From an uncultured virus (IMG/VR IMGVR_UViG_3300042867_001762) (Duplodnaviria; Heunggongvirae; Uroviricota; Caudoviricetes), in the IMG/VR virus record IMGVR_UViG_3300042867_001762: 20,000 nucleotides of DNA, one strand, 5' to 3'. Below are positions 1 to 14,225 of the stretch, in pieces. The notes beneath the pieces were generated by a model, which saw only the letters and a program-made list of their open reading frames with translations, made no database searches and had not been told where the DNA came from. Every line of letters begins with the position of its first letter. Position 1 is the stretch's first letter. The position numbers and the translations under genes are program-made.

Positions 1-69
1 CTCTGTTAGTATAGATATAGCTTCTTCGCTGGATCTTGCATAAGACAGCGCGACTTTGTCAAGTTTCAT
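1..69 (-). CDS. N-terminus of a hypothetical protein, truncated by the left window edge (MKLDKVALSYARSSEEAISILTE...)
   Basis: ATG at 69-67 preceded by GGAG (minus strand ATGGAGTTGTC-ATG). The frame is open to position 1. Confidence 0.45.
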   Translation of the reverse strand, partial: MKLDKVALSYARSSEEAISILTE

Positions 70-325
70 GACAACTCCATACAGCGGCATACCCGGCTTT
101 AGAGCCGGCGCGGGTCAACTAGCAGCTGTCTAATACTTAGTACAGCTGTAATACCGGCATCAAGAGAGGTTTTAGCTCCCGGTGGGTGGTGGCGGTTCCC
201 TTGGTATCTTTTGCCCATTATTCTTCAGACGGGTAAACGCTGCAAAGCGGTTGTCTGCCGGCAATAGGCCAGCCGCTCTAGGCACAAGAAAAAGAGAGAA
301 GAAGCAAACAGCGGGGCAACCGGGA

Positions 326-692
326 CAGGATCAGGGCACACCGTCTTTAGGACTGGAGCGAGTCTAGAAAAAAGAAAATGCTAACAGGATCAGGCGAGTA
401 TGTTTTTAGGACCGCGTGAAGTTGACAAAAAGACAAAGGGCGACAGGATCAAAAGAATCTGTTTTTAGGACCGGCGCGTTTCACATAGAAACAAGTATAT
501 AGACACACACAGGTCAAACCGATACAGGATCACAGATCCCCGTCTTTAGGACGGAGCAAGGGCAGAGGATTGCAGGCAATCGGCAAACCCCTACAGGATC
601 AGCAACACCCGTCTTTAGGACCGGAACGCTGCAATCCTCTGCCTGACAGAGGGGCAACTGTATCAGGATCAGAAATCGCTGTTTTTAGGACC
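326..692. repeat. Gene-free tandem cluster of six motif copies
   Basis: Start-to-start distances are 59,59,81,69,70 bp. The intervening DNA is unique, A-rich, and has no RBS-supported ORF. Confidence 0.9.
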
Positions 693-801
693 GGAGCACA
701 CAACGCGCGCGCGAATAGATCGCCCGCCCCCGGTTGTCCCGTTGGCAGGTGTGTTGCAGGTTGTAGGTACCGGGGAGAGTCGCCCCTCCCCGGTAGTGGC
801 T

Positions 802-984
802 TCAATCAAGCCAAAACAAGCCTTTTTCTAACCAGCTACAGGCAGCATGCATGGCCCGTGCCCTGTCCGCTTCGAGCGGCGCAAAGCGGGCACATTGAAA
901 GGCCATCGCAATACACTCCGTCCACGTAGGCTCGACGTCAGGACGGCTAGGAGGAAGTTCCAAAAAGCGCAGCATTATTGCCAC
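802..984 (-). CDS. Possible small hypothetical protein (60 aa)
   Basis: Same strand as the array genes and downstream of paralogue 1. The RBS is weak and no motif is recognised. Confidence 0.25.
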   Translation of the reverse strand: MAIMLRFLELPPSRPDVEPTWTECIAMAFQCARFAPLEADRARAMHAACSWLEKGLFWLD

Positions 985-1053
985 CTGTGTAGGGGTAAGC
1001 TGTCATTCTAACAGGAAAGGGAGCCGGGTTATCCCGGCCCCCACCTGCCTGCC

Positions 1054-1482
1054 TCACTTCAGCTTGGCGACAGCTTCAGCGAGACGGTCAGCCAGCCGGA
1101 GAACCTCGGCACGGCTAGCCTCGGTACCAGCGGTCCCGGTACCATCCACCTTGACAGAGAGCTTATCAGCGTTCTCCCGGAGAAACGCCACTCCCTTGTC
1201 GGTCATGATGAGGTCCAGCGCAATCCCCACAAAGTGGGGAGCGTAGACCGTGACAGGAAAGCGAGCGGACACACCGTAGATGCTGATAGCACCCTTCTCG
1301 CTGGCCTTGGCGGTGTAACCACGCGCCTCGCCCTTAGTCTTGGTAGCAGCATCGGCACGGGCCTTCTCTGCTGCCAGCGCAGCCTCGGCAGCCTTGAGAC
1401 GCTCCATGAGAGCTGCCACATCCGGGCTGACAGAGGTGACGGTGTTGTTGGCGACGGGGGTTCCGACCTTGATGAGCGACAT
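1054..1482 (-). CDS. Uncharacterised protein, paralogue 1 of 3 (coiled-coil + KASEKGAISIYGVSARFPVTVY motif), 142 aa
   Basis: ATG at 1482 after GGGAGAG. The MSLIK start and body align with 2455-2898 and 5646-6158. Confidence 0.9.
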   Translation of the reverse strand: MSLIKVGTPVANNTVTSVSPDVAALMERLKAAEAALAAEKARADAATKTKGEARGYTAKASEKGAISIYGVSARFPVTVYAPHFVGIALDLIMTDKGVAFLRENADKLSVKVDGTGTAGTEASRAEVLRLADRLAEAVAKLK

Positions 1483-2063
1483 GATGCTCTCCCTGTATTT
1501 AGGCTCCACGAGATACCCGACCACCGGGTATAACGCTTCACCTTTGCGGCTATGTAGTGGGCCGCCGTTCTGCTCTACAGGATCGGCGGACCCCGACTTT
1601 AGGACCGCCGCCCCCTGTCAAGAAAAACTGCTTTCTAGCAGGTACTATCTAGCAACCTACCAAGCATCCCTATCAACGCGCGCGAGACAATAGCTATCCA
1701 GCAAGCCCGGGCGGCCTGCTAAAGATTATAAAGTTATCTCCCAGCTCTCTACCGTTAGGGAAAGCCAGAATCAGTAAAAGCACAACAGGATCACACAACA
1801 CCGTCTTTAGGACTGAAGCCGCAATCCTAATAACAGATAGAAAAGATCCTGCAAACATTGCATCAGCATTACAAAGCCACTAGGCACACCGCACCCGTCC
1901 CCGGTTGTCCCGTTGACGCAGGTTACAGGATCGGCGGACTCCGTCTTTAGGACCGCCGGCCCCTGTCAGCTATCATAAAACGCAAAAACAAAACGGATCT
2001 TTTGTCCACATAACTAATCCACCGGATACACCTCTCCCCGCCCCCGACTATAGCGTTGACGCG

Positions 2064-2166
2064 TAACAGGATCGGGAGAAGCTGTTTTTAGGACCGGCAC
2101 AATAAAAAGGGGCATAAACTTTGCAGGCAATCCCGGTCCTAAAAACGGGCTTTCCCGATCCTGTTA
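2064..2166. repeat. Back-to-back inverted pair of the motif
   Basis: TAACAGGATCGGGAGAAGCTGTTTTTAGGACCGG (2064-2097) and CCGGTCCTAAAAACGGGCTTTCCCGATCCTGTTA (2133-2166) are near reverse complements, 35 bp apart. Confidence 0.9.
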
Positions 2167-2454
2167 TTGTTCCCCGGTTTTTTCTTGCAATCGACGCACC
2201 TATCCCGCCCCCGGTTGTCCCGTTGACCCGTCTGTCAGGATCGTCGGCGTATGTTTTTAGGACCGACGACCGGACTGCCCCGCGCCGGGCAATAAAAAAA
2301 GGAATAGTTCGCCCGCCCCGGTTTGTCACCAGAGTACGTCCTACAGGATCAGGCGAGTATGTTTTTAGGGCCGGTGGCGAACCCGGCGGGTCCGGCCGGG
2401 CGCCGGTCGCCGGAAAAGGGGCAGGCGGGTCGCCCCGCCCACCCCCGGCCCGCC

Positions 2455-2898
2455 TCACTTCAGGCGGGCAACCGCACCGGCCAGCCGGTCTGCGAGGCGC
2501 AGCACTTCCGCCCGGCTCGCCTCCGTCCCGGCCTGCCCGGTGCCGTCCACCTTGACAGACAACTTATCCGCGTTTTCACGCAGGAAGTTGACCCCCTTAT
2601 CCGTCATGATAAGGTCAAGGCACACCCCGACAAAGTGCGGGGCATACAGCGTGACAGGGAAGCGGGCGCTAACCCCGTAGATGGAAACCGCGCCCTTTTC
2701 CGATGCCTTCGCAGAATAACCCCGCGACTCCGCCTTGACCTTTTCAGCGGCGTCGGCGCGGGCCTTTTCCGTCGCGACCGCAGCTTCCGCCGCTGCGAGG
2801 CGGGCCATGAGCGCGGCAATGTCAGGAGACAGAGACGGCGCCGTGACGGGCGTGGCAACGGTGGCGGCGACAGGGGCGGGGAGCTTGATAAGCGACAT
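2455..2898 (-). CDS. Uncharacterised protein, paralogue 2 of 3, 147 aa
   Basis: ORF track. Strongly similar to 1054-1482 (identical LRENADKLSVKVDGTG and EASRAEVLRLADRLA). Confidence 0.9.
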   Translation of the reverse strand: MSLIKLPAPVAATVATPVTAPSLSPDIAALMARLAAAEAAVATEKARADAAEKVKAESRGYSAKASEKGAVSIYGVSARFPVTLYAPHFVGVCLDLIMTDKGVNFLRENADKLSVKVDGTGQAGTEASRAEVLRLADRLAGAVARLK

Positions 2899-3204
2899 GG
2901 CTTGTATCCTGCGTTCTAGCCTATCCGCAACCCCCGACCATCGGGCGCTGCGTCATCGGCGCTGCGTCGCGGCGTCGTCGCCGGGACACCCTACAAGATC
3001 AGGGGAAGCTGTTTTTAGGACCGGTGGCGACCGCGCTTTTCGGACAATAGGACGCCCGCCCCCGGACTCGCCGTTGGCCCTTGCAGATAAGTTTTGCAAT
3101 CTTTTAGCCCCGCATGGCACACCTCCCACGTATGCGGGACAAGATCAGAGGAGTATGTTTTTAGGCCCGGTCCGGAGTCAGGTGCCCCCCCGGCACCCCG
3201 TCCC

Positions 3205-3405
3205 CTAGCGGACGTCCGCCAGCGCCCGCAGCATCTCGGCGCGGCGGGTCAGGTACTCCCGCCCCGTCATTTCCAGATTGCAGCGTTCCGCCGCCCATCC
3301 CCGCAGCGCCCACGGGGCGCGGGCGAGCGCCGCTTCCATCCCGCCCTCGCGGGCGTTCACCGTCGCGTTGCCGTTGCCGTCAATCGCAATCTCCGTCACC
3401 TGCAT
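3205..3405 (-). CDS. Hypothetical protein, 66 aa
   Basis: GGAGG RBS 5 nt before ATG, directly downstream of the motif copy at 3429. Confidence 0.75.
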   Translation of the reverse strand: MQVTEIAIDGNGNATVNAREGGMEAALARAPWALRGWAAERCNLEMTGREYLTRRAEMLRALADVR

Positions 3406-3500
3406 GCAGCCTCCGTTGTGGCACCTATCAGGATCAAAAGTTTATGTTTTTAGGACCGGCCGGACTCGGGACCGGAGCTAGGCCCCGGTCCGTTGTCCGC

Positions 3501-3794
3501 TCACTCGTATCGCGGGCGCTGCCGGCTCTGCCATTCGGCGAGTGCTTCCGGGTCCCGCGTGCGGCGGACTTCTACATCGGTCCCGCCGAGAACCGAGAAG
3601 CGGTCATGACGCGGCGCGTAATGCGCTTCCTCGCGTTCCAGCCGCCGGGCAAACCGGCGCGCCCGGCGCGGGTTGTCAAAAGACCACGCCTTTTCTACAT
3701 TCGACCAGTCGAACCACCAGCCGCCTTCCTCATGCCCGCCAAAGTGGCGGGAGGTTGAAACGACTGCCACGAAAACCTGCTCGCTGCTGCGCAT
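3501..3794 (-). CDS. Hypothetical phage-type protein with FGGHEEGGWWFD motif, 97 aa
   Basis: GGAGGCGACG-ATG at 3794, downstream of motif 3813. It resembles YGGPEEGGWWY-type phage hypotheticals from memory (not searched). Confidence 0.8.
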   Translation of the reverse strand: MRSSEQVFVAVVSTSRHFGGHEEGGWWFDWSNVEKAWSFDNPRRARRFARRLEREEAHYAPRHDRFSVLGGTDVEVRRTRDPEALAEWQSRQRPRYE

Positions 3795-3878
3795 CGTCGC
3801 CTCCGTGTCTAACAAGATCAAAAGAATCTGTTTTTAGGACCGGCTCAGCAAAGAACCCCGCGCGTGCGGGGCCGGACC

Positions 3879-4172
3879 TCAGTCCGCGAGAAGCTGCGCC
3901 TCAAACTGGTAGGCCAGTGAGCTGCTTTGATAAGCGTAGCTGCCGACATAGCGGCGACTGACTTCCGCCTGTACCTGCGCCGCCGTCAACGGCGGGAACA
4001 CCTTGACGCCTCCGGTGTTGGCGCCCATCTCCCCCGACTTTTCAGTCAAGGCACCTAGGATGCCCCGGTCCCGGTCAACGAACACAACTTCGCCGGAAGG
4101 GCACTGCATAGCCACGATGCGTTGACCATGGGGACCATAAAGACGACCGGTGTTGAAGTGAACCTTGGACAT
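3879..4172 (-). CDS. Hypothetical protein (FNTGRLYGPHGQRI), 97 aa
   Basis: AGGAGG RBS, downstream of motif 4215. Confidence 0.8.
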   Translation of the reverse strand: MSKVHFNTGRLYGPHGQRIVAMQCPSGEVVFVDRDRGILGALTEKSGEMGANTGGVKVFPPLTAAQVQAEVSRRYVGSYAYQSSSLAYQFEAQLLAD

Positions 4173-4278
4173 AGCTGCCTCCTGCTAGTTGGTTTCGTTC
4201 CGGCTTCTGCTATACAGGATCAGAGGAGTATGTTTTTAGGACCGGTCGCGAGCCAGGTGGGGCTGGCGCCCCAGCCGG

Positions 4279-4410
4279 TCACTCGTCGTCGCGGTCCCGG
4301 CGGACTCGCCCCCGGCACGCCCGGCGTTTCGATTCCGCCTTGCGGTCGCGCATGACCCCGCCTTTACGGGTTAGGATCATCTGCAACAAGATTGCGTTTC
4401 GCGGCTTCAT
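4279..4410 (-). CDS. Small basic protein MKPRNAILLQMILTRKGGVMRDRKAESKRRACRGRVRRDRDDE (43 aa; below the ORF-track cutoff)
   Basis: Translated by hand. GAGGG RBS, followed by a GC hairpin. Overlaps the end of 4364-4555. Confidence 0.55.
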   Translation of the reverse strand: MKPRNAILLQMILTRKGGVMRDRKAESKRRACRGRVRRDRDDE

Positions 4411-4555
4411 AGGCTACCCTCGCACGGCGGCGCGTGTCCGCCAGAAAATAGTTTTTCTCGTATGAATGCACCGCATGACCGGACACCGGCGCATAGCCGG
4501 GCGGATAATGCGGCGGGGCGAACAACGCCCGGAGCGTTTGTCGGAGCCGTTCCAT
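4364..4555 (-). CDS. Hypothetical protein, 63 aa
   Basis: GGGAGG RBS immediately downstream of motif 4572. Confidence 0.55.
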   Translation of the reverse strand: MERLRQTLRALFAPPHYPPGYAPVSGHAVHSYEKNYFLADTRRRARVAYEAAKRNLVADDPNP

Positions 4556-4634
4556 CGTGCCTCCCGGCTATCAAGATCGGCCCGGTATGCTTTTAGGACC
4601 GGGAAGGAAAGGGGCAGGTGTCCGCCCCGATCCC

Positions 4635-4817
4635 CTAGTTGTGAGCGTAGCCGTGGTGAGGTGCGATACCCGCCCACACCAGTTCGGCTAGATAGCGGTT
4701 GTTGAATACGAGCACCCCGCCGGGGAGTCCGCGCACTGCCCAGTGCCCGATCTCGCCGGGCAGGAACTCCCCGGCATCAACGTGTTCCTGATCAATGCAA
4801 AAGAAAAGCTCTTTCAT
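4635..4817 (-). CDS. Hypothetical protein, 60 aa
   Basis: AGGAGG RBS. Second gene of the unit headed by motif 5052. Confidence 0.7.
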   Translation of the reverse strand: MKELFFCIDQEHVDAGEFLPGEIGHWAVRGLPGGVLVFNNRYLAELVWAGIAPHHGYAHN

Positions 4818-4835
4818 GCGCAGTCCTCCTACCCG

Positions 4836-5030
4836 CTAATCGCGGTGGTCGCGGGTCTCGTCCGCTTCGAGCATCATCGCACGGTGCTCCCATGCACGTT
4901 GCAGGGCGGCAACATAGACGGCAGTCGACGGTGCATGCTCGCTTTCCCGGCGCATCCGGGCATAGTCCGGGGGTGCACAGTCACACGCAGGGCGTTGCTT
5001 ACAAGTAGGGCAAGAAAACTTGCTTTTCAT
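4836..5030 (-). CDS. Small Cys-rich protein (CPTC...CDC), possible zinc binding, 64 aa
   Basis: GGAGG RBS, downstream of motif 5052. Confidence 0.7.
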   Translation of the reverse strand: MKSKFSCPTCKQRPACDCAPPDYARMRRESEHAPSTAVYVAALQRAWEHRAMMLEADETRDHRD

Positions 5031-5131
5031 ACCGGCCTCCGTTGTGCTTATCAGGATCAGGTAAGTATGTCTTTAGGACCGGGGCCGGAAGGAAAGGCCG
5101 GGGGATTTCTCCCCCGACCCGCCCCGGACGG

Positions 5132-5524
5132 TCACACCTTGCGGATAGCATGACCAGTCAGGACCAGCCCGATGCCGTCGGGCACCTGCACCCCGGAGAA
5201 CAGGGCGGCAGCTTCCGTCCCCCGGATGGTAAGGCCGAACCGGGTGCCCCGGCGGTCGACAAGGCCACGGCACCGGAGACAGGACAGCGCCCGCTCCACG
5301 TTGGAGACCGGGATGCCTTGCGTTTCCGCAATCTCAGCGGCAGTAGCAGCCCGACGCCCGCGCCGGGTTGCCTTGCGGCGGGCAATATCTGCGAGGATGG
5401 CCGTTTGACGCGGCCCCGGCGTGGTGGTATTCCCATAGTTAAGGCTTGACAGCTTGCCGACAAGCACGTCAGCAGCGGCACGGGAAAGAGCAAGGGTGAG
5501 GGAACGAGCAGACTGCTTGCGCAT
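5132..5524 (-). CDS. Winged helix-turn-helix DNA-binding protein, 130 aa
   Basis: TAAEIAETQGIPVSNVERALSCLRCRGLVDRRGTRFGLT matches the wHTH pattern. GGAG RBS, downstream of motif 5571. Confidence 0.75.
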   Translation of the reverse strand: MRKQSARSLTLALSRAAADVLVGKLSSLNYGNTTTPGPRQTAILADIARRKATRRGRRAATAAEIAETQGIPVSNVERALSCLRCRGLVDRRGTRFGLTIRGTEAAALFSGVQVPDGIGLVLTGHAIRKV

Positions 5525-5645
5525 CGCGTCTCCATTCGCGGCGTTTGTTTCGTCGTCGCCGCTTGTCTAACAGGATCAAAAGAATCTGTTTTTAGGACCG
5601 GCGGGGAAGGAAAGGGCCGGGCGAACCCGGCCCCCTTCCTACCGT

Positions 5646-6158
5646 TCACGCCTTGCGGGTGACCCGATCAAGCTCATCGGCAAGGCTGCGCACTGCCGAT
5701 TCCGAAGCACCCGTGCCCGCCTGGCCCGTGCCGTCGACCTTGACCGAAAGCTTCGCCGCATTCTCCCGGAGGAACGCCGACGCCTTGCCGGTCATAACCA
5801 GATCACGGATGATTCCCACGAGGTGGGGAGCGTAGAGCGTCACCGGGAACTTGGTAGAGACGCCGTAGATCGAGATAGCGCCCTTCTCCGACGCCTTCAT
5901 GCTGTATCCACGGCTACCGCCACTCGCCGCACGGGCAGCCTCGGCCGCATCGGCCCGGGCCTTCTCTGTAGCGAGCCCCGCCTCGGCCGCCGCAAGCCTC
6001 GCCATAAGAGCCGCAATGTCCGGGCTCGTGCTCGTCGCAGCGACCGGCGCCGGGAGAGGCATCGGCGCCATAGGGGCGGGCGCCGTCACACGGGGAGCGG
6101 GGAGAGCAAGGGTGTTGCCAGAGTTGCCGGTGTTGGAACCAAACTTGATGAGCGACAT
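5646..6158 (-). CDS. Uncharacterised protein, paralogue 3 of 3, with Pro/Ala-rich N-terminal extension, 170 aa
   Basis: MSLIK start at 6158, and KASEKGAISIYGVSTKFPVTLYAPH. Confidence 0.9.
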   Translation of the reverse strand: MSLIKFGSNTGNSGNTLALPAPRVTAPAPMAPMPLPAPVAATSTSPDIAALMARLAAAEAGLATEKARADAAEAARAASGGSRGYSMKASEKGAISIYGVSTKFPVTLYAPHLVGIIRDLVMTGKASAFLRENAAKLSVKVDGTGQAGTGASESAVRSLADELDRVTRKA

Positions 6159-6340
6159 TGTGCTTTCCCTTTTGTTTCTAGGGCCTAGCGTACCGCCGAC
6201 CACCGGCGCTACGTTTAACCCGTTATGTGCGGCGCATCGTATCGTTTCGTCGCCGCCGTTCTGTCTAACAGGATCAAAAGAATCTGTTTTTAGGACCGGT
6301 AGGCTCGGGTCCGGGGCTACGCGCCCCGGCCCGTCACCCG

Positions 6341-6607
6341 CTAGTCTTCGAGCGCCCGGAGAATCGCCACCGCGTTAGCGGGACGGTTGGCGCGGACCAC
6401 CGCCGCAACCCAGTGGTTGCGACCCGTCTCGCGGCCGGCGAGGTGGCACACCTGCTTGAACCAACCCACCCGGCCCCGGTTCTCCACCGGGTAAGCGACC
6501 GAGCGGTCGCCCCGGGCGATGCCCGCCGCACTGGCGAGCACGTCCAACCCGTCGTGCTGCGCGGCGAGAACGCGAACGTTGCGAGCTTCCTTCTTTGTCA
6601 GCTTCAT
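6341..6607 (-). CDS. Hypothetical protein, 88 aa
   Basis: GGAGGCCACG-ATG at 6607, downstream of motif 6626. Confidence 0.75.
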   Translation of the reverse strand: MKLTKKEARNVRVLAAQHDGLDVLASAAGIARGDRSVAYPVENRGRVGWFKQVCHLAGRETGRNHWVAAVVRANRPANAVAILRALED

Positions 6608-6702
6608 CGTGGCCTCCATGTCTAACAGGATCAAAAGAATCTGTTTTTAGGACCGGGGAGGAGAGGGGCGGAGCCGGGTGAACCCGGCCCCCGCCCGGAC
6701 GG

Positions 6703-7011
6703 TCATGCCGTCTCGGTAAGGTCAAGCTCCGAGACGAGCGCTTCGGTATCCCCGTCGCCCATGACAATCCCGTACCGGGTGCCGGCGGGCAGGCGCGTCA
6801 CCCGCAGGAAGTCGGTTGACGGGACCTCATAGTCCGCCACTTCCGGGTGGAGGTCGATGAGACGAGCCGCAAAGGCGTCGTCGTCGGCCGCCTCCACGGC
6901 CGCGACCAGTACCGGGTCACGGCGCAGGCGGGCAAGAGCGCCGGCCTCCACCCCCTCGATTTCGAGGGTGCCGTAGTCGGTAGAGAGAATAATGCCGATG
7001 ACGTTGGTCAT
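6703..7011 (-). CDS. Acidic hypothetical protein, 102 aa
   Basis: GAGGT RBS before ATG 7011, downstream of motif 7067. Confidence 0.75.
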   Translation of the reverse strand: MTNVIGIILSTDYGTLEIEGVEAGALARLRRDPVLVAAVEAADDDAFAARLIDLHPEVADYEVPSTDFLRVTRLPAGTRYGIVMGDGDTEALVSELDLTETA

Positions 7012-7117
7012 GCTAACCTCGGGCAGGGCGGGCCGGCAGGAGCGCCGGGAACCGCTGGACACCTATCAGGATCAAAAAGTTATGTTTTTAGGACCGATGA
7101 CGCCCGCAAAAAAAGAC

Positions 7118-7145
7118 AAAAAAACCCCGGCTGATTAGGCCGGGG
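7118..7145 (-). terminator. Rho-independent terminator
   Basis: CCCCGGC/GCCGGGG stem followed on the minus strand by a T7 run, just after the stop of 7168-7578. Confidence 0.8.
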
Positions 7146-7167
7146 CCGGGCGAGGCCCGCTGTGAGG

Positions 7168-7578
7168 CTAGCTCTCACTGTGACAAACACATCCCCACCC
7201 TGCGCAGGAGTGAGTATCTTCGAGCACGTCGTCCGGCAGGAACGCCCCGCGCCCGTCAAGAGCTTCCTCGACTTCATGACGGAACAGCATGCAGGCGGCC
7301 ACGTCCTCCAACGTGTAGACGTATCCGACTTGCGGGTTGCGGCCCGGCTGAAAGCGCACGGTCCCCGTGCGGAAGGGGCGCACGCCTTCAGACTCCATCC
7401 CGCCGAAAGCGGCATGGATATTTGGGAGAGCGGCCCAGAGCCGCTCGAATCCCGCACGGTCCCCACGAAACAGGAGCTTGCCGTTAACGTAGAACTCCAA
7501 CGCCCGGCCCACGTCCGACGGGAAATCGATGCCAGCGAGACGAATGTCAAGGGCGAGAGAGCGCTTTTGCGAAGCCAT
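7168..7578 (-). CDS. Hypothetical protein, 136 aa, C-terminal HSCxxxxCxCH
   Basis: GGAGG RBS, downstream of motif 7623. Confidence 0.8.
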   Translation of the reverse strand: MASQKRSLALDIRLAGIDFPSDVGRALEFYVNGKLLFRGDRAGFERLWAALPNIHAAFGGMESEGVRPFRTGTVRFQPGRNPQVGYVYTLEDVAACMLFRHEVEEALDGRGAFLPDDVLEDTHSCAGWGCVCHSES

Positions 7579-7673
7579 GCTATCCTCCGTTGTGCGGCCC
7601 GTGCCGCCGTTCCGATGTCTAACAGGATCAGAAATATCTGTTTTTAGGACCGCTGCCAGGTTCGAGACCTGGC

Positions 7674-7701
7674 AAAAGAAAAGCCCCGGCGGGGCCGGGG
7701 C
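7674..7701 (-). terminator. Rho-independent terminator
   Basis: GCCCCGGC/GCCGGGGC stem plus TTTTCTTTT on the minus strand. Confidence 0.8.
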
Positions 7702-7722
7702 GGTGGAAGGGTGGGCGGCGAA

Positions 7723-7980
7723 CTAAAATAGTTCGTCGCCGATGATAGCGAAAGCTTCCGACGCGGAAAGACAACCGGCGTCCCACTGCTCGCGGGCCTC
7801 AGCGGGCAGGCGGGCGAAAAGGCCCGCCTCCGTCATGAGCTTGGCAAGGCCGGCATCGACGCCGCACCAAGCGGCGCGGTCAGTTCCGTAGCCCGCGCGG
7901 CGCGCGGCAGCCGCATCGCGGTCGGCGCGCCGGAGCGCGACGATGTTGGATCGGGCAGTGAGGCTGTCGTTGTTGTTCAT
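7723..7980 (-). CDS. Hypothetical protein, 85 aa, apparently leaderless
   Basis: The ATG lies 6 nt after the motif (GATCTTG-ATAAGC-ATG) with no RBS. A terminator follows the stop. Confidence 0.65.
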   Translation of the reverse strand: MNNNDSLTARSNIVALRRADRDAAAARRAGYGTDRAAWCGVDAGLAKLMTEAGLFARLPAEAREQWDAGCLSASEAFAIIGDELF

Positions 7981-8059
7981 GCTTATCAAGATCAAAAGAT
8001 AATGTTTTTAGGACCGGGCAGGTTCGGGACCGGGGATGCGACTCCCCGGGCCGGGACGG

Positions 8060-8224
8060 CTAATCCTCCGTCTCGATCTCCCGGCGCTCGGAACGCCGGA
8101 CGGCCCGCGCCGTCTTGCGCTTGACGGCCGCCTTGCCCCCGCCGCCACGGGGACAACACCCCGGGCACAGGCAAAGCGCGTGCCCGAAGTTTCCAGCGAT
8201 GCGAATCCGAACCGATTGAGCCAT
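8060..8224 (-). CDS. Small Cys-rich basic protein MAQSVRIRIAGNFGHALCLCPGCCPRGGGGKAAVKRKTARAVRRSERREIETED (54 aa; not in the ORF track)
   Basis: Translated by hand. GGAGGT RBS. Fills the unit between motifs 8241 and 7987. Confidence 0.7.
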   Translation of the reverse strand: MAQSVRIRIAGNFGHALCLCPGCCPRGGGGKAAVKRKTARAVRRSERREIETED

Positions 8225-8312
8225 GCTGACCTCCGCCTATTAGGATCAGAAAAGAATGTTTTTAGGACCGGTCCGGCTCGGCACCGGGGACAAGCCCCGG
8301 CCCGATTCCTTA

Positions 8313-8525
8313 TCAGTAGCCCGCTTGCCGGAGCGCCCGCAGCGCATCGGAGTGGCGCAGGAGCCTTTGAATACTTGTCATGTCCATCTCGGCTATCGCC
8401 GCCCGGGCGCGGTGGGCCTCCCATCCGACCGTGGCCAGCGTACCGGGGAGCCCCATCGGAGCCATGGCCGTCAGCTTGCTGCCGTCGGGAAAGGTCACCG
8501 TCATCTTGCCAGCCTTGTCTTTCAT
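8313..8525 (-). CDS. Hypothetical protein, 70 aa
   Basis: GGAGG RBS, downstream of motif 8544. Confidence 0.75.
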   Translation of the reverse strand: MKDKAGKMTVTFPDGSKLTAMAPMGLPGTLATVGWEAHRARAAIAEMDMTSIQRLLRHSDALRALRQAGY

Positions 8526-8601
8526 CGCTGCCTCCGTGACTAACAGGATCAGGAAAGAATGTTTTTAGGACCGGCGAGAAAGGGGGCACCGGCCCCGGAG
8601 A

Positions 8602-8700
8602 CTAACCCGCCATCCCGTAGAACAAGACGGGATAGACGAACACGAGAACAAACATACCGGCAAGGAAGAAAAACGCATCGGCAGCATCGCGGCGGGTCAT
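8602..8700 (-). CDS. Single-pass membrane peptide MTRRDAADAFFFLAGMFVLVFVYPVLFYGMAG (32 aa)
   Basis: GAGGTG RBS, downstream of motif 8718. One hydrophobic segment. Confidence 0.65.
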   Translation of the reverse strand: MTRRDAADAFFFLAGMFVLVFVYPVLFYGMAG

Positions 8701-8782
8701 ACTCACCTCTTGCCTATCAAGATCAAAAAAGAATGTTTTTAGGACCGGCGGAAGGCGGGCGGGGGATTGCTCCCCCGGTCCG

Positions 8783-8929
8783 CTAGTCGCGGCGCTTTTC
8801 CCTTCGGCGGGCATCCCACGAGCGGGGACGACCCTTTGTCGGGCGGGGCGACTCACCCGCCGGGCGGCCCCGGCCCATGCGGGCGGGGCGGTTATCGGTT
8901 TCGTCGTCAGGGATGTTCCACGGCTTCAC
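8783..8929 (-). CDS. Possible 48-aa basic peptide with two GRP (AT-hook-like) motifs
   Basis: GTG start overlaps the TGA of 8926-9240 (GTGA coupling). Hand translation MKPWNIPDDETDNRPARMGRGRPAGESPRPTKGRPRSWDARRREKRRD. Confidence 0.4.
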   Translation of the reverse strand: MKPWNIPDDETDNRPARMGRGRPAGESPRPTKGRPRSWDARRREKRRD

Positions 8930-9240
8930 AGCCCCACCCCCGGCTTGCGGACCGTGACCGTGGCATCGGCCACCGGCAGCCCGGCAGCTTCGCAGTCCCG
9001 GCGGATAACCGCCGGAATCTCGCGGCGGTTGAAGCCACGGCGTACCATCGCCGTTTCCAACTCTCCGGCGAGGTTGGCCAGTGCCTCCACCACCGGCCCG
9101 GCGTCGCCGCCGATGGCGAGCAAGGCAAAGGCGAGATCCGTGACCTGATCTGCACGGGCAGCCAGGCCCGCGTCCCCGGCCCGGCGGGCCATGGCATTTA
9201 CGATTCCAATGCGAACAGAGAGGGTCGTTTCGGTACGCAT
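8926..9240 (-). CDS. Hypothetical protein, 104 aa
   Basis: AGGAGG RBS, downstream of motif 9279. Confidence 0.8.
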   Translation of the reverse strand: MRTETTLSVRIGIVNAMARRAGDAGLAARADQVTDLAFALLAIGGDAGPVVEALANLAGELETAMVRRGFNRREIPAVIRRDCEAAGLPVADATVTVRKPGVGL

Positions 9241-9343
9241 GTTGCCTCCTGCGGCGTGTTGTTTGCCGCTCTGCCTATCAGGATCAAAACTTTCTGTTTT
9301 TAGGACCGGCCGGGGAAAGAGCCCGGCCGGCGCCGGGCATCTC

Positions 9344-9811
9344 TCACCCCTCCCACGGGGCGCGGGCGTTCAAGCACGCTTCCGGGGTGAGGTCCGGCTC
9401 CCACCGGGCCAGCATCCCCTCGATTGCGGCGAGGGGAACCCCGTGAGAGTTACGGGCGGCGCACTCCGCCGCGTCCCGCCCCCACGGCGTGCGCGGCTCG
9501 ACGAACTGCACCCTGTATCCGTGGAAGGTCGCGGCGCGGACATATTCCCGCGCCTCCCATCCTTGAGTCATAGTGTTGTCCACGATGACGTGGGTAACAC
9601 CGGCTTCCATCGCCTCCGCCGTGCGGCGGAGGTTGGCCGCGTGGTGGGCCCCGAGCTTCGACCCGTCGAAGCGGTACTCGCCATCGACCATGAAAAAATC
9701 ATCTGTGGAAAACACGGGAGCCGTCTCGACGCCCGGGACGTTGGCGAGCACCTTGGCAAGGGTGCTCTTGCCGCTACCGGGGACGCCACGCATAATCGTC
9801 AGGGTCTTCAT
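9344..9811 (-). CDS. P-loop kinase, AAA_33 / N4BP2-like (polynucleotide-kinase-type fold), 155 aa
   Basis: Walker A GVPGSGKS, STDDFF, VIVDNT and RNSHGVP motifs. GGAGG RBS. Confidence 0.85.
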   Translation of the reverse strand: MKTLTIMRGVPGSGKSTLAKVLANVPGVETAPVFSTDDFFMVDGEYRFDGSKLGAHHAANLRRTAEAMEAGVTHVIVDNTMTQGWEAREYVRAATFHGYRVQFVEPRTPWGRDAAECAARNSHGVPLAAIEGMLARWEPDLTPEACLNARAPWEG

Positions 9812-9925
9812 CGTATCCTCCGTGCCGGTTTGTTTCGTTCCGGCTTCTGTCTAACAGGATCAAAAGATAATGTTTTTAGGACGGGTGACGAGCCGGGCAG
9901 CCCGGTCGATTGACCGGGGAGCCGC

Positions 9926-10258
9926 TCACGCGGGACGGCTCAAGCCCCGGCAGCCAACCGGCTGACCATCGGGGCCGCGCACAAGCGCCCCGGGGGAAAG
10001 GACGTCGGTACGGCCCCGCACCGCCGGGTGTCCGGCGACGAGGCCGGAGACAACCCACGTCACGCCGGGGGCCGGCGCGGGGAGGCCGACGACCTCCCCG
10101 AAAGAGGTTTCGAAAATCTCCACGCCGTCGACGACGGCGGCCACGGCCGTCTTTGTCGCCACGCGGGCGACGGTCCCGTCGGCGGGCAGGACGAGCGCGG
10201 GCGCGCCCGCTTGGTCGACGACGGTGATGGTGTGGGGGGTCAAGTTCACAAACGCCAT
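9926..10258 (-). CDS. Hypothetical protein with N-terminal NLTPH motif, 110 aa
   Basis: GAGG RBS, downstream of motif 10296. The NLTPH...VAR...LPAP...VVS pattern is recalled from phage hypotheticals (not searched). Confidence 0.8.
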   Translation of the reverse strand: MAFVNLTPHTITVVDQAGAPALVLPADGTVARVATKTAVAAVVDGVEIFETSFGEVVGLPAPAPGVTWVVSGLVAGHPAVRGRTDVLSPGALVRGPDGQPVGCRGLSRPA

Positions 10259-10398
10259 GCGAGCCTCGGGTGTTGCGGGTTGTTCTGACGCCTAACAGGA
10301 TCAAGAGAGAATGTCTTTAGGACCGGCCGGGGCCGGGAAAGAAACGCAGAAAACGGCAAGGCCCCGCCTTGCTGGCGGGGCGGGGCGATGGGCGGGAG

Positions 10399-10608
10399 TT
10401 AGTTCCCGCCGCAGTGATAGCAATCGTGCCCTTGCCGGGAGCTGCACTCCCCGCTAAGCGGGCCATTGTCGGTCCCGCAGTAGTAGCAGATGTCCCGGCC
10501 CGGGGTGGGCCGCAGGCGCCACTCGGGAGTGGTGGCGGTGGGGGTCTCGGCCTTGTCGGCGGCCGAAGCCGCGCTCAGGCGCTCAAACATGCAGTCATAG
10601 CTAGACAT
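10399..10608 (-). CDS. Zinc-ribbon-like protein (CYYC...CYHC), 69 aa
   Basis: GGAGG RBS before ATG 10608. Two CxxC pairs. Confidence 0.75.
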   Translation of the reverse strand: MSSYDCMFERLSAASAADKAETPTATTPEWRLRPTPGRDICYYCGTDNGPLSGECSSRQGHDCYHCGGN

Positions 10609-10746
10609 ACTGCCTCCGGGTGTTGCGGGTTGTTCTGACATCTAACAGGATCAAAAAGAAATGTTTTTAGGACCGGCCGGGGCCGGGAAAGAAAAGCGGA
10701 AAAGCGGAAACCCCGCCGGGTTAGGGCGGGGTCGGGGGGGCGGGGG

Positions 10747-11109
10747 TCACCAGTAAACCGGGTGCCCCCAGACGGAGTAGGAAACTCCGTCTTCGTCTTG
10801 GAGGACCTCGTCCCCCAGGGGATAGTAAGCGGGGTCGTTGACCACCTCCTCCGCGCGGGCGGGGGTGATGCGCCCCCCCTCGACGAGGGGGGCGAGGATT
10901 GCCCCCTTTCGGGCGGCGGCGTCGCCGCTGGCCGCCCATGCGGCGGCGGCGGCTCCGTAGGCGGCTGCTTCGCCGCCGTCACCGTAGGCGGCGGCGGTGG
11001 TGGCGGCGAGGTCGGCGTCTTCAGCCGCTTGCGCGGCGAAGGAGAGGAGGGCGTGGGCGCGCCCGATGGCGGCGTTGACGGCGGCGGTGGTGGCGCGGGT
11101 GGTCTTCAT
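10747..11109 (-). CDS. Ala-rich hypothetical protein, 120 aa
   Basis: GAGG RBS before ATG 11109, downstream of the leader hairpin and motif 11165. Confidence 0.75.
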   Translation of the reverse strand: MKTTRATTAAVNAAIGRAHALLSFAAQAAEDADLAATTAAAYGDGGEAAAYGAAAAAWAASGDAAARKGAILAPLVEGGRITPARAEEVVNDPAYYPLGDEVLQDEDGVSYSVWGHPVYW

Positions 11110-11213
11110 GGTTGCCTCACAGACAGGGGGAAGGGGTTGACGGACTGGACCCTGTCTCGACATACAAGATCAAAAAGAAATGTTTTTAGGACGGGCCAGG
11201 CTCGAGACCGGGC

Positions 11214-11239
11214 AAAAGAAAACCCCGGCAGGGCCGGGG
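11214..11239 (-). terminator. Rho-independent terminator
   Basis: CCCCGGC/GCCGGGG stem plus TTTTCTTTT. Related hairpins at ~11620-11641, 12195-12223, 12293-12318 and 12686-12712. Confidence 0.8.
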
Positions 11240-11261
11240 CGAGAGAAGCGGCGGGCCGGGT

Positions 11262-11522
11262 TCACCGGAGCGGGCGGGCCGCGCCACCCATACGGGCGCG
11301 CATCGCCCGGATGCGCTCCGCTACCAACTCCGCTTCCGTCGGCGGGGGCGGAGGGGCGTCAAGCACCCCCACCACCACCGTACCGTCGTCGAGCTGCCCC
11401 CGATGAATGCGGGCCGCCTCAGCGTCACCGGCCTCGCTGTAGGCGGCCCGCAGACGGGCGGCGATGACCGCCGTGCGGACGGCGGTGGCATCAACGATGG
11501 TAGCAGTGCGGCGGATGGTCAC
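11262..11522 (-). CDS. Hypothetical protein, 86 aa (GTG start)
   Basis: GGAGGCCGCC-GTG, downstream of motif 11559. Confidence 0.7.
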   Translation of the reverse strand: MTIRRTATIVDATAVRTAVIAARLRAAYSEAGDAEAARIHRGQLDDGTVVVGVLDAPPPPPTEAELVAERIRAMRARMGGAARPLR

Positions 11523-11654
11523 GGCGGCCTCCAAACGGGACTGGATTGTCCCGCGCATCAGGATCAAAAGATAATGTCTTTAGGACCGGCCGGGGCCGGG
11601 AAAGAAACCCGGAAAAGCGAAAGCCCCGGCAGGGCCGGGGCGATTCACTACGGG

Positions 11655-12089
11655 TTAGTAGTTGTCGTCGTCGTCGTTATCATAGAACGATATCGACGCG
11701 GACTCTTTCGTCTGATAGAAAGAGACCTCGACTGAATAATACCCGTTGCTATTGCCTTGCCAGCGCAGGGTGACGTAGCCCTTCCCCGTGGCGAAGCGGT
11801 AGAACGTCCAACCGCTTGTTCCGAGCGAGTGGCCGTCCTCGTCGATGTCGTCGACAATCTCGCCCGCGCACTCCGCCATGACGAGCGGGGAGTTAACAAG
11901 GTCGCACAGGTCGCCGTCGACCTGCGTGAGGCCAACATACTCGCAGCAGCTGCGCGAGTGGTGCATCAACCACTCGCTGCCGTCCGCGAACGTGAATCGG
12001 ACGGCGTCCCCGCCGTCTTTGTCCTTACAGAGTCCAACGGACTTGGCAGTCATGCCGACGATGGGGAACGTGTCATTGAAAGCGGTCAT
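11655..12089 (-). CDS. Hypothetical phage-type protein with CCE, WTFY and SNGYYS motifs, 144 aa
   Basis: GAGG RBS before ATG 12089. The motif set is recalled from a widespread phage hypothetical family (not searched). Confidence 0.85.
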   Translation of the reverse strand: MTAFNDTFPIVGMTAKSVGLCKDKDGGDAVRFTFADGSEWLMHHSRSCCEYVGLTQVDGDLCDLVNSPLVMAECAGEIVDDIDEDGHSLGTSGWTFYRFATGKGYVTLRWQGNSNGYYSVEVSFYQTKESASISFYDNDDDDNY

Positions 12090-12345
12090 GACGGCCTCAC
12101 AGACAGGGGGAAGGGGTTGATGGACTGATCCCTGTCTCGACATACAGGATCAAAAGATAATGTCTTTAGGATTTCGCCTGGTTCGAGACCGGGCAAAAGA
12201 AAAGCCCCGGCCCGTGCCGGGGCTGGCGCCGGGGACGCCCCGCCCTAGACCTTGACCGTGACATAGGCGTGCGACGACGGCGGACAGAAAATAAAAAAAC
12301 CCCGGCGCGTGGCCGGGGTCGGAAGGGTGAGAGGGAAGGCCGGGG

Positions 12346-12579
12346 TCATTCCCCGGCGACGAGACTCTCGCAAAGCCCCGGGCGCCAGTCGATGGAATCC
12401 GCCCCGATGGCGGAGTCGAGCCCTTGGTTTGCGAGTTCCAGCGCGGCCTCCGTAACCGCCAACGCGGCGGCCGCCGCCGGGCAGGACGGTGACGCGGCGT
12501 GAGCGGCGCGGACGGCATCGAGGGCGGCGGCGAGGGCGTTGACGGCGAGGGCGGCGGTGGTGACGGCGGCGGTGGTCAT
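12346..12579 (-). CDS. Ala-rich hypothetical protein, 77 aa
   Basis: GAGGT RBS, downstream of the leader hairpin and motif 12636. Confidence 0.7.
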   Translation of the reverse strand: MTTAAVTTAALAVNALAAALDAVRAAHAASPSCPAAAAALAVTEAALELANQGLDSAIGADSIDWRPGLCESLVAGE

Positions 12580-12738
12580 GACTTACCTCACAGACAGGGG
12601 GAAGGGGTTGATGGACTGATCCCTGTCTCACGCGTCAGGATCAAAAGATAATGTTTTTAGGACCGGCCCGGCTCGAAACCCGGTGAAAGAAAAGCCCCGG
12701 GCTAGCCGGGGCAGACAGGGCAGGGTCGGCCCCGGCCA

Positions 12739-13149
12739 TCAGAACTCGACGTCATCGGGAATCGTCTGCCACATCTCAGTCCCATCAGGCATGACATTAA
12801 GGAACCATGGGCGGGCATCAACCCGGTCGGCGAAGGGGACGCCCTCGACGGCGTCAATGTCCCAACGGCGTGCGGCTCGTTCCGCCGCGTCGTATCCGCC
12901 GTCATAGGCGTTCACGAGAAGGGCGGCGGTCTCCGTCGCCGGGCGGCGGCTTTCAATGGCGGTGGCGGGCCGGACTGCCACGCGCCGCAAGGCGGCGACG
13001 GCCGCCGCGCCGGGGCGCCCGCCGTCATAGGCGGCAAACGCCTCCACTACCGCCTTGCGATATTCTTCTTGAGCCATGATGGCCAGCGCCAGCGCGGTCT
13101 TGGTTACGGTAGCAACGTAGGCGGCGCGGGCTGTGATGGTGGTGGTCAT
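12739..13149 (-). CDS. Ala-rich hypothetical protein, 136 aa; first gene of the array
   Basis: GAGGT RBS, downstream of the leader hairpin and motif 13206. Confidence 0.75.
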   Translation of the reverse strand: MTTTITARAAYVATVTKTALALAIMAQEEYRKAVVEAFAAYDGGRPGAAAVAALRRVAVRPATAIESRRPATETAALLVNAYDGGYDAAERAARRWDIDAVEGVPFADRVDARPWFLNVMPDGTEMWQTIPDDVEF

Positions 13150-13400
13150 GACTTACCTCACAGACAGGGGGAAGGGGTTGACGGACGGGTCCCTGTCTCA
13201 CGCGTCAGGATCAGGAAAGAATGTCTTTAGGACCGAAAGGAATGGAAAGTAATAGGCAAGATTTGTGCCGCTTTTATTACGGGCGGCTGCCTGGCCGTTT
13301 ACAGGAAAGCAACCCCTGGGCGGGGGTTGGCGGGTTATAGGGGCGGAGGGGTAGCGTGGCACGCGGATTGCACGCTAGGAAAATTTGCAAATTTCAGGGG

Positions 13401-13696
13401 GCCTGCACTACGTGCAGATATCTCCAGATATCTCCAGATATCTCCCGGTATTCTCCAGGTATCTACCGGGTATATCTTCTGGTATTTTCTACTGGACAAG
13501 GCCTGCACTACGTGCAAGCACCTCCCGGTATTCTCCCGGCAAATGCCGGGTATATCTTCTGGTATTTTCTACTGGGCAAGGCCTGCTCTACGCGCAAGTA
13601 CCTCCCGGTATTCTCCAAGCATCTCCCGGCATCTCCCGGGTATATCTTTTGGTATTTTCTACGGGACAGGGGCTGTACTACGTGCAGACATCTACC
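13401..13696. repeat. Non-coding tandem repeat block
   Basis: Units start at 13401, 13501, 13581 and 13671 (partial). Each begins with a TGCAC-TAC-GTGCA-like palindrome, and the three full units contain CCGGGTATATCTTYTGGTATTTTCTAC. Confidence 0.9.
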
Positions 13697-14225
13697 GATT
13701 ATCGATAGGTTATCTATTGAGGGGACGCCTCCTTGTGTGCCACGGACTCCTTCTGGTATATTCTCTAGTGTTTTCTCTATATAGCGGGGGCGCTTTGAGT
13801 GCAGAAGCGTGGGTGTATTCCTTGTGTTTTTCTTATAGGGCGGGGGCGGATTAGAACCTTGATGCTTTTATTATAGCGGGCGGGTGGATCCGGTTGCGGG
13901 TTGTTTTTGTTGGTACTGGGCGGGGGCGGCTTCCGGATGCGGTGGGGGTTATTTTAGGGGGTTTCTGTTGGTAACGCGGTGCGTTGCGGCAGGCGGTTTT
14001 TTGGCGGTGGGATGCGGCTTTGCGGTAGTTTACTGGGGCGGTGATTGTGGTTGGTGGTGTGGTGTAGTGAAAAGTAGGATTCGTGGTTTAGTAGAGTGGT
14101 CAAAGAAAACTGTGGATAAATGGGAGGGGGCCCGGGTGAGGAGGGGGCCTTTTGTGGGCGGGAGTTGCGTTTTATTCCTGTCGGTCTATTTTTATAGGAG
14201 GCTTTGCTGGAGACTTGGAGGATTT

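Follow-up and report, generated by a model that had tools for sequence, protein, structure and literature searches.

What kind of element heads the small genes that crowd one strand of the genome of an uncultured virus (IMG/VR record IMGVR_UViG_3300042867_001762), and does it serve their expression, their exchange or both? The 20,000-nucleotide (nt) stretch analysed here, referred to below as the window, carries a bipartite 29-bp motif, GGTCCTAAARAC-N10-GATCYTG, that recurs ahead of one short open reading frame (ORF) after another, and an earlier note, made from the letters alone, had proposed a phage early or host-takeover region in which a promoter-terminator junction is also the crossover point for gain, loss and reordering of cassettes. 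From the sequence comparisons described below it seems likely that the 29-bp element is a phage-specific promoter and that the 11-kb stretch forms a hyperplastic array of small, insulated transcription units, with a part in cassette exchange being a more tentative matter.

The window is the reverse strand of positions 344,026-364,025 of a 371,675-bp virus record. At up to three mismatches the pattern has 39 matches in it, against 0.01 expected, and none of 200 shuffles reaches 39. Twenty-six copies lie between 2344 and 13234, all on the minus strand (19 exact, six with one mismatch and one with two), which bears out the minus-strand array headed by a repeated bipartite motif that the earlier note had described; the limits given there were too narrow, as the array goes on beyond 2344 with 11 more minus-strand copies and one strong plus-strand copy at 326-2264, and the motif, with a GC-rich spacer, continues for another ~130 kb of the genome. 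Scanning the full genome with a weight matrix built from the element copies, as had been proposed, gives 76 copies scoring at least 10 bits, of which the gene strand has 75 and the opposite strand one. This count is constant at every threshold from 10 to 20 bits, and there is therefore no tail of weak sites. All copies are confined to one contiguous third of the genome (~144 kb, from 350,792 through the record end to 123,234), the same scan finding none in the remaining ~228 kb, where the replication and virion genes lie. The spacer between the two blocks is exactly 10 in 75/75 matches of a regular expression, and spacers of 6-9 or 11-15 were never found in that genome-wide search.

The copies fall into two classes. 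Class A (n = 37, all in the window) has the consensus CCGGTCCTAAAAACA-(T/C-rich)-TGATCCTG-[T/A]TAG[A/G]C, a T/A-rich spacer and copies 59-914 bp apart, with a start codon 7-130 nt downstream of the element, usually behind GGAGG. Class B (n = 38) has the consensus CCGG[G/C]CCTAAAGCCGG-(GC-rich)-CGATCCTGAAGG.CGAAC, a GC-rich spacer and copies 87 bp to ~10 kb apart, in tight intergenic gaps. A start preceded by a Shine-Dalgarno sequence (SD) was found for 37 of the 38 class B copies, 11-153 nt past the motif (median about 32), and the long ORF upstream ends 8-21 nt before the motif in 17 of 29 scored cases. The density of the element thus drops from 37 copies in 13 kb of array to 38 in about 131 kb elsewhere.

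Units in 2344-13234 measure 108-698 bp, against the ~150-700 bp given in the earlier note. As that note had it, most of them (24/26) carry one or two small ORFs (32-170 amino acids (aa); GC content at third codon positions (GC3) 0.59-0.90), usually with a GGAGG-type ribosome-binding site (RBS); those without an ORF are 3023-3168 and 2265-2372. The cargo is indeed mostly unrelated: an all-vs-all BLASTP of 28 array ORFs yields one mutually matching family only (c16, c24 and c30a, the 'MSLIK' family), while 3 of 27 array ORFs have a Pfam match (DUF7448, an AAA_33 kinase and a weak helix-turn-helix (HTH)) and 5 of 27 a PHROG match. The GC hairpin expected before each next motif, often with a T run, is also there, ending 10-44 nt upstream of 25 of the 26 copies by the hairpin criteria of this analysis, but 68% of random positions in this 64%-GC stretch have a simple GC hairpin too, which makes the count weak evidence when taken alone. 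With hairpins so common in the background, the informative contrast lies in the T-run class and in the number of terminator-like sites. A hairpin plus at least four T in the next eight bases is found at 11 of 37 scored window copies, all 11 inside 2344-13234, against 5.5% of random positions, and a terminator scan gives 27 terminator-like sites against 13.3 +/- 3.6 in shuffles.

We read the element as a protein-DNA transcription-start site because its copies are co-oriented with the genes at 75:1, are strictly intergenic and lie a short distance from RBSs, because terminator-like hairpins precede the class A copies, because all copies are confined to one contiguous part of the genome, because two conserved blocks stand at an invariant distance with a free spacer between them, and because tandem copies head the operons that follow. 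Conservation in a relative agrees with this. In a 36-kb IMG/VR fragment (G001), collinear with positions 95.9-132.5 kb of the genome at 76% identity, the element is present at 6/6 orthologous class B sites, with CCTAAA intact in all six and GATCC in five (one has GATCT), the spacers having changed. Each unit would thus run from a hairpin terminator through the promoter and a short leader with a GGAGG-type RBS to one or two small ORFan genes, transcription presumably starting at or just after GATCYTG, and the same promoter would also head longer operons over a further ~130 kb. A start 7-8 nt past GATCTT would make the mRNA of cassette 12 leaderless, since its ATG comes so soon after the motif and has no SD. 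The array genes would be early or middle genes; the layout is what suggests an early or host-takeover role.

The statement that the motif is not a sigma-70 promoter has stood up: its consensus lacks TTGACA and TATAAT hexamers, and none of eight sigma-70-like sites scanned in window positions 1-14000 falls on a motif copy. Across the genome, sites of the sigma-70 consensus are no commoner than in shuffles (35 on the plus strand and 28 on the minus strand, compared with 16-40). A single perfect TTGACA-17-TATAAT exists in the whole genome, at 138,951, about 75 nt upstream of the GroEL ORF (L008:4487-6232), which suggests that the host uses ordinary promoters and that the 29-bp element needs something else. 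A separate short sequence, CTATTAA, is overrepresented between the genes of the region that lacks the motif (8 vs 0.7 expected), often directly after terminator hairpins; its sites include genome positions 170,782, 175,858, 235,822, 247,237 and 247,287, and it is a candidate late-promoter element.

The GGTCCT and GATCCT blocks are direct repeats two helical turns apart (half-sites 22 bp apart), an arrangement that would also suit an operator, in which a phage DNA-binding regulator occupies two G[GA]TCCT half-sites over weak, unrecognised promoters. Candidate regulators are at hand, as the array encodes an HTH-like protein (cassette 17) and the phage two small sigma-region-4-type HTH proteins. 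We nevertheless think an operator improbable: there is no other promoter-like conservation around the copies, the element keeps a fixed short distance from the RBS in each unit, and the best-conserved bases, CCTAAA, lie outside the direct repeat.

The gaps that class B copies occupy within apparent operons are very short, and many of these copies can fold a CCGG...CCGG hairpin with CCTAAAG in its loop, both of which speak for an RNA-level signal (processing or antitermination) acting in read-through transcripts. However, covariation was not seen in the class B stem: its inner CCGG/CCGG pairs are 74-89% paired but nearly invariant, its outer pairs are about 50% paired, and mean pairing in the register is 0.63 against 0.60 when shifted by one. 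Class A forms no stem in that register and its copies come after terminators, and an invariant distance between blocks with a free spacer is a protein-DNA pattern rather than that of an RNA fold. The predicted folding of shared leaders is no better than that of shuffles (z -0.6 to 0), and Rfam gives no match at gathering score, only a sub-threshold one to PrrB/RsmZ (22.8 vs 44 bits). A mobile repeat of the repetitive extragenic palindrome (REP) or miniature inverted-repeat transposable element (MITE) kind, or an integron attC, is confronted with other facts: neither inverted ends nor target duplications were seen, the phage gave no match to an integrase or resolvase, and no genome among 185,579 has several copies. 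We give this whole group, RNA signal, mobile repeat and attC alike, hardly any weight beside a promoter.

Those 185,579 genomes, one per prokaryote species, hold 50 single scattered hits, none with two per genome or contig, and on this ground the element is neither a repeat of host chromosomes nor a widespread host promoter. A pattern scan of IMG/VR finds the element only in G001 and in a near-identical fragment (G002), both of class B; in the metagenome collection, one fragment alone (L120, discussed below) has more than one copy; and a literature search for three motif substrings returned only primers among the matches listed. The novelty of the motif, as opposed to a described host promoter or REP family, is accordingly upheld in the genomes, IMG/VR, metagenomes and literature searched. 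Attempts to reach further relatives of the array gave little. Searching with the cassette 7 kinase led to three unrelated phages only (one of them, L124, 435 kb and AT-rich, has only coding repeats), searches with a 'MSLIK' protein and with its 4-sequence alignment found no further relatives, and a 458-aa neighbour protein used as query had one weak match only. The C-terminal domain of a 2,397-aa neighbour is common to 25 unrelated contigs, whose repeats are coding, and another fragment (G004) carries the sigma gene described below and stops short of the array. An unrelated IMG/VR phage (L198, a 107,786-bp contig) bears, at 2400-4900, an array of paired ATTATAGTTGTACAT repeats, mostly ~290 bp apart; the gene downstream of them encodes the same C-terminal domain as the 2,397-aa protein of the window.

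The units of the array are listed in Table 1.

Table 1. Motif-headed units and other motif copies of the array, in window coordinates (paralogue positions refer to the genome).
Feature	Extent (strand)	Motif	ORF	Remarks
Cassette 0	12665..13234 (-)	13206-13234	12739-13149 (136 aa)	60-nt leader
Cassette 1	12174..12664 (-)	12636-12664	12346-12579 (77 aa)	Cassette 0 leader family; two hairpins, with T runs
Cassette 2	11588..12173 (-)	12145-12173 (2 mismatches)	11655-12089 (144 aa)	DUF7448; paralogue at genome 5569-5928
Cassette 3	11194..11587 (-)	11559-11587	11262-11522 (86 aa)	
Cassette 4	10675..11193 (-)	11165-11193	10747-11109 (120 aa)	
Cassette 5	10325..10674 (-)	10646-10674	10399-10608 (69 aa)	Cys-rich
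Cassette 6	9884..10324 (-)	10296-10324	9926-10258 (110 aa)	phrog_30542
Cassette 7	9308..9883 (-)	9855-9883	9344-9811 (155 aa)	AAA_33 P-loop kinase; paralogue at genome 4161-4631; placed elsewhere in relative L120
Cassette 8	8747..9307 (-)	9279-9307	8926-9240 (104 aa)	
Cassette 9	8573..8746 (-)	8718-8746	8602-8700 (32 aa)	Hydrophobic
Cassette 10	8270..8572 (-)	8544-8572	8313-8525 (70 aa)	
Cassette 11	8016..8269 (-)	8241-8269	8060-8224 (54 aa)	SD from 7 nt past motif
Cassette 12	7652..8015 (-)	7987-8015	7723-7980 (85 aa)	ATG 7 nt past motif, without SD; possibly leaderless
Cassette 13	7096..7651 (-)	7623-7651	7168-7578 (136 aa)	
Cassette 14	6655..7095 (-)	7067-7095	6703-7011 (102 aa)	
Cassette 15	6298..6654 (-)	6626-6654	6341-6607 (88 aa)	3' end and hairpin adjoin insertion point of L120
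Cassette 16	5600..6297 (-)	6269-6297	5646-6158 (170 aa)	Long leader; 'MSLIK' family
Cassette 17	5081..5599 (-)	5571-5599	5132-5524 (130 aa)	Weak winged-HTH matches, below Pfam cut-offs
Cassette 18	4601..5080 (-)	5052-5080	4836-5030 (64 aa); 4635-4817 (60 aa)	
Cassette 19	4244..4600 (-)	4572-4600 (GC-rich spacer)	4364-4555 (63 aa)	
Cassette 20	3842..4243 (-)	4215-4243	3879-4172 (97 aa)	
Cassette 21	3458..3841 (-)	3813-3841	3501-3794 (97 aa)	phrog_30656
Cassette 22	3169..3457 (-)	3429-3457	3205-3405 (66 aa)	
Unit 23	3023..3168 (-)	3140-3168		No ORF reaching 25 aa; an SD is followed by just a 3-codon ORF
Cassette 24	2373..3022 (-)	2994-3022	2455-2898 (147 aa)	~100-nt leader; 'MSLIK' family
Units 25-29	1607..2372 (-)	2344-2372, 2236-2264, 2067-2095, 1926-1954, 1786-1814		Motifs 108-208 bp apart, no plausible ORF; candidate short non-coding transcripts
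Opposite-strand copy	2135..2163 (+)	2135-2163		42 bits, the only strong one; convergent with copy 2236-2264
Cassette 30	693..1606 (-)	1578-1606	1054-1482 (142 aa); 802-984 (60 aa)	142-aa ORF of 'MSLIK' family
Six tandem motifs	326..692 (-)	59-81 bp apart		No ORFs between; face next genes

The convergent pair lies 72 nt apart and would give fully complementary short transcripts. The block of six motifs stands where the GC-rich ORFan array gives way to the longer operons, the first ORF beyond it starting at window position 69, and may act as a battery of promoters or give rise to very short transcripts. A G-rich element, CAACGGGACAACCGGGGGCGGG, occurs with its variants at least five times on the minus strand of 700-3100 (for example at 2200-2222, 1895-1917 and 725-747), most copies lying 10-20 nt downstream of ORF-less promoter copies; its predicted folds are no better than those of shuffles, and it is a candidate small RNA or protein-binding site. 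At the other end, between the last late-strand genes and the first cassette, window positions 13380-13700 hold complex tandem repeats (an 80-bp unit repeated 2.2 times with 89% matches, plus 10- and 21-bp repeats), a candidate origin or regulatory region. In the class B region, at least eight small ORFs at genome 484-11,481 share a short DUF6745-like segment and form a multi-copy family; the opposite strand carries two HNH endonuclease genes at 15.6-16.8 kb.

The record, rated complete, ends in an overlap of 127 bp, has 51% GC and bears nearly all of its genes on one strand. By its gene content the source is a jumbo tailed phage, an uncultured freshwater myovirus; the phage origin that the earlier note had supposed is confirmed by a gpA-type terminase, a portal, a major head protein, a baseplate wedge and rIIA. 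Replication-type genes include PolIII-alpha, DnaB, primase, RecA, gyrase B/A-like subunits and ribonucleotide reductase, and the phage further encodes Lon, GroEL/ES, DnaJ, two trigger-factor-like proteins and five tRNAs. The public runs listed as containing the window stretch, 24 in all and none of them of RNA, are lake and river metagenomes. Cellular GroELs, mostly of Alpha- and Betaproteobacteria, are only ~40% identical to that of the phage, which is too weak for naming a host. Close GroEL relatives on other contigs are 891 aa long and have a LAGLIDADG/intein-type domain. Homologues of this GroEL and of the sigma described below also point to relatives on contigs of 155 kb and 242 kb.

What would read such a promoter? 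In GGTCCT-N16-GATCCT, positions 2 and 6 of the second block are A and T, and this geometry, with its invariant spacer, fits a holoenzyme of the sigma-70 family, of the extracytoplasmic function (ECF)-like type. The search for a sigma factor that the earlier note had suggested turned up three sigma-like ORFs, of 262 aa (genome 177,957-178,745), 191 aa (22,499-23,071) and 130 aa (205,986-206,375), the latter two being sigma-region-4 proteins. The 262-aa protein matches TIGR02937 (sigma70-ECF superfamily) over both of its domains, below cut-off, and has four invariant Cys between them, in a zinc-ribbon-like insertion; its 10 homologue clusters come from related uncultured phages, reach down to 45% identity and in several cases bear the name sigma-24 in one source. 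In its AlphaFold model (predicted local distance difference test score, pLDDT, 67.9) the best PDB matches are sigma factors, and the C-terminal domain fits sigma-4 at 1.1-1.6 A, so that the predicted fold confirms it as an ECF-like sigma. The last bases of its gene (L021:1351-2139) overlap the start of a 2,698-aa ORF.

Some observations weigh against a promoter read in this way. The 262-aa sigma is encoded in the late/structural third of the genome, an awkward place for a factor that should serve the first promoters in use; CCTAAA is only 13 bp from GATCCT, nearer than in an ordinary -35/-10 pair, and the sigma reading therefore needs GGTCCT as its -35; and at the class B copy at genome 62,537 the SD begins 2 nt past the motif, which fits a T7-like start inside it better than one 6-8 nt downstream. 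This last copy favours the promoter of an unrecognised phage RNA polymerase, perhaps one delivered with the virion (as in N4, phiKZ-like or crAss-like phages), starting inside GATCCTG. In keeping with such an enzyme, the specificity of the element is rigid and private, there is no cluster of host-type promoters to begin infection, the T/A-rich tract of class A just upstream of GATCCTG would suit melting before a start at G, and seven giant proteins (1,444-2,698 aa) have no informative family match, only short repeat or tail-fibre matches.

The search for a phage RNA polymerase, another suggestion of the earlier note, found none. Beta and beta' families have no match in the phage (controls positive), and neither does the T7-like PF00940, for which the control set was silent too; PHROGs on 59 proteins (the ORFs of at least 300 aa without a Pfam match or outside the Pfam scan) revealed no polymerase family, and neither NADFDGD-like nor T7 motif A/B/C patterns occur in the large ORFs. 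The giant ORFs were searched with Pfam or PHROGs (all seven), NCBIfam (seven), PDB sequences (three) and the Atlas (one): nothing came of comparing three giant ORFs and the sigma with PDB sequences, the Atlas had no usable match, and NCBIfam on 27 proteins gave sigma and collagen-like matches only. MotA and AsiA families had no match, with silent controls that make the result uninformative. Against a phage polymerase stand also the class B tract, GC-rich where that of class A is T/A-rich, and the sigma-family proteins that the phage encodes, which imply use of the host core polymerase. We therefore regard a polymerase of the phage's own as rather unlikely, and put the host core RNA polymerase with a phage-supplied specificity factor at about an even chance.

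The composite terminator-promoter junctions would not only insulate the units; they may also promote the gain and loss of cassettes through recombination with one another. That they are a regular crossover point for gain, loss and reordering, which is compatible with the promoter reading, seems to us conceivable, at slightly less than even chances. The most direct indication comes from the 1,264-bp metagenome fragment L120 (66.5% GC, three motif copies), from a relative of ~77% identity. It begins with the 3' end of gene 15 of our genome and its hairpin, followed by a motif and the cassette 7 kinase (78% nucleotide identity), a motif and an ORF without match in our genome, a cassette 15-like hairpin, and finally a motif and gene 16 (77%). 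Two extra cassettes thus sit exactly at the 15/16 junction, which is duplicated so as to flank them; one of the two, the kinase, sits 3.5 kb away in our genome as cassette 7. A chimeric assembly is unlikely, as no exact repeat longer than ~15 nt joins its junctions. The junction and leader families are moreover mosaic along the array. A contig from a river run jumps from 10291 to 10642, skipping exactly one 350-bp unit (cassette 5), but this is a weak indication, the joint having 37 letters on one side and 88% likeness, and promoter conversion or strain divergence could account for it.

Other comparisons weigh against exchange at the junctions. The one fragment on which that explanation rests is short. 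The only gene-sized indel in the 36 kb of G001 (genome 99,885-100,440 vs G001 3,990-4,118, where our phage has an extra ORF of ~180 aa and the relative only a long hairpin) lies ~290 bp from the nearest motif and is not motif-bounded, and strain contigs of 90-99% identity that bridge junctions are collinear. Homology between junctions is also short, 4/666 pairs reaching 50 bp ungapped, whereas the homology of the promoter early stem-loop elements (PeSLs) of T4-type phages is given as ~100 bp (PMC2839356). A site-specific recombinase, which the earlier note had suggested looking for, was not found (PF00589 and PF00239 without match in the phage, controls positive); the recombination-related proteins of the phage are RecA, a Cas4-like nuclease and SbcCD-like proteins. 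Gene order among relatives thus breaks at a junction in L120 and away from the motif in G001, and of the crossover claim in the earlier note the insertion at a junction stands, set against the G001 indel, the collinear strains and the short junction homology. Circles and deletions were sought in short contigs, at depth 2-8, from 4 of 24 runs. One joint, X7 (6261 to 5564, back 698 bp or one unit), the only one resembling a circle or duplication, was rejected as probably a graph artefact, its 38-nt exact repeat being longer than the assembler word, and joints at 11003-11102 and 12539-12572 were rejected as Ala-rich GCC repeats with depth to ~2,170 from other organisms.

The array also differs from its genome in composition, with 64% GC against 51% and a GC3 of 0.76-0.83 against 0.58-0.59 in paralogues outside the array (genome 4161-4634, 5569-5931 and 12024-12440) and a genome mean of about 0.50. 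In GC content L120 equals the array. Host-like codons for the genes translated first, biased gene conversion and foreign origin are candidate explanations of the high GC3. On a wider reading, which we hold to be doubtful, ~40% of the 372-kb genome would be run from one private, invariant promoter whose reader lies outside current family models; timing or strength would depend on the spacer class, cassettes would be exchanged by way of the junctions, and a GC3 of ~0.8 would be a recombination footprint or reflect selection for host-like codons ahead of the phage tRNAs. Candidate readers would then be the zinc-ribbon-bearing ECF-like sigma, brought in or made at once, or one of the giant ORFs as an unrecognised virion polymerase. 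Its 76 near-identical copies, its fixed spacer and the lack of off-target matches make the element a clean handle for finding the protein that reads it, and the transcription strategy of a jumbo phage family without an RNA polymerase of its own becomes directly testable; an orthogonal sigma-promoter pair is a possible yield. Junction-bounded insertion of cassettes together with a raised GC3 makes the array a concrete place to study how phages gain ORFans.

Of the known systems, an integron cassette array was rejected, there being no match to an IntI-type recombinase in the phage and no attC-type imperfect palindrome in the motif, and the earlier note was right in holding that the motif is not an attC. 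The host-takeover module of SPO1 and the tandem early promoters of T7 (A1-A3) rely on the sigma-A/sigma-70 consensus of the host. The present array resembles them in its dense small genes with many promoters and terminators, and in six tandem promoters within 367 bp that face the following genes, but differs in that its element is not a sigma-A/sigma-70 consensus. The early promoters of N4 are hairpin promoters read by an injected virion RNA polymerase. Here too a private promoter stands at many units, with a potential GC hairpin just upstream of the 3' block in class B; unlike in N4, class A has no hairpin potential in that register, the class B stem shows no covariation, and a polymerase of the N4 kind was not found. 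Promoters of ECF-type (group 4) sigma factors, with the consensus GGAAC(TTT)-N16/17-CGT, share with the element two short blocks at a rigid distance, GGTCC(TAAA)-N17-GATCC having the same geometry, and an ECF-like sigma is encoded; both block sequences differ, however, as does the phage sigma itself, in the zinc-ribbon-like insertion between its domains.

The closest likeness is to PeSLs, which consist of a sigma-70-like early promoter and a stem-loop, occur in about 50 copies, most of them in hyperplastic regions ahead of ORFans, fall into five subclasses by stem-loop position (Arbiol et al. 2010, PMC2839356), and recombine to insert, delete and circularise cassettes (PMC2839356; Comeau et al. 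2014, PMC4122927). Both systems have composite terminator/promoter motifs repeated tens of times in a hyperplastic region, directly upstream of ORFans and ending in an SD and start codon; both have subclasses by stem-loop position (here class A with the stem-loop upstream, class B able to form one across the promoter). In L120 cassettes are inserted at a junction, as they would be with PeSLs, but the G001 indel is not bounded by the element. Set against the same descriptions, the promoter of our phage is not sigma-70-like, its conserved tract measures 29 bp, including a free spacer of 10 bp, instead of ~100 bp, and it also heads conserved operons over 130 kb. The phages that carry PeSLs are T4-type, whereas the present genome is 372 kb, has a gpA-type terminase and is not documented as T4-type, though rIIA is present. 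The novelty that the earlier note had seen in the architecture therefore falls away, a composite terminator/promoter junction upstream of ORFans being, on what those sources describe, the PeSL arrangement (PMC2839356; PMC4122927). The architecture of the array is thus already known, while the promoter itself was not seen as a repeat outside related phage fragments in the collections searched, and insulated cassettes of the PeSL type are extended from T4-type coliphages to an unrelated, uncultured freshwater jumbo phage, with a promoter that is not that of the host.

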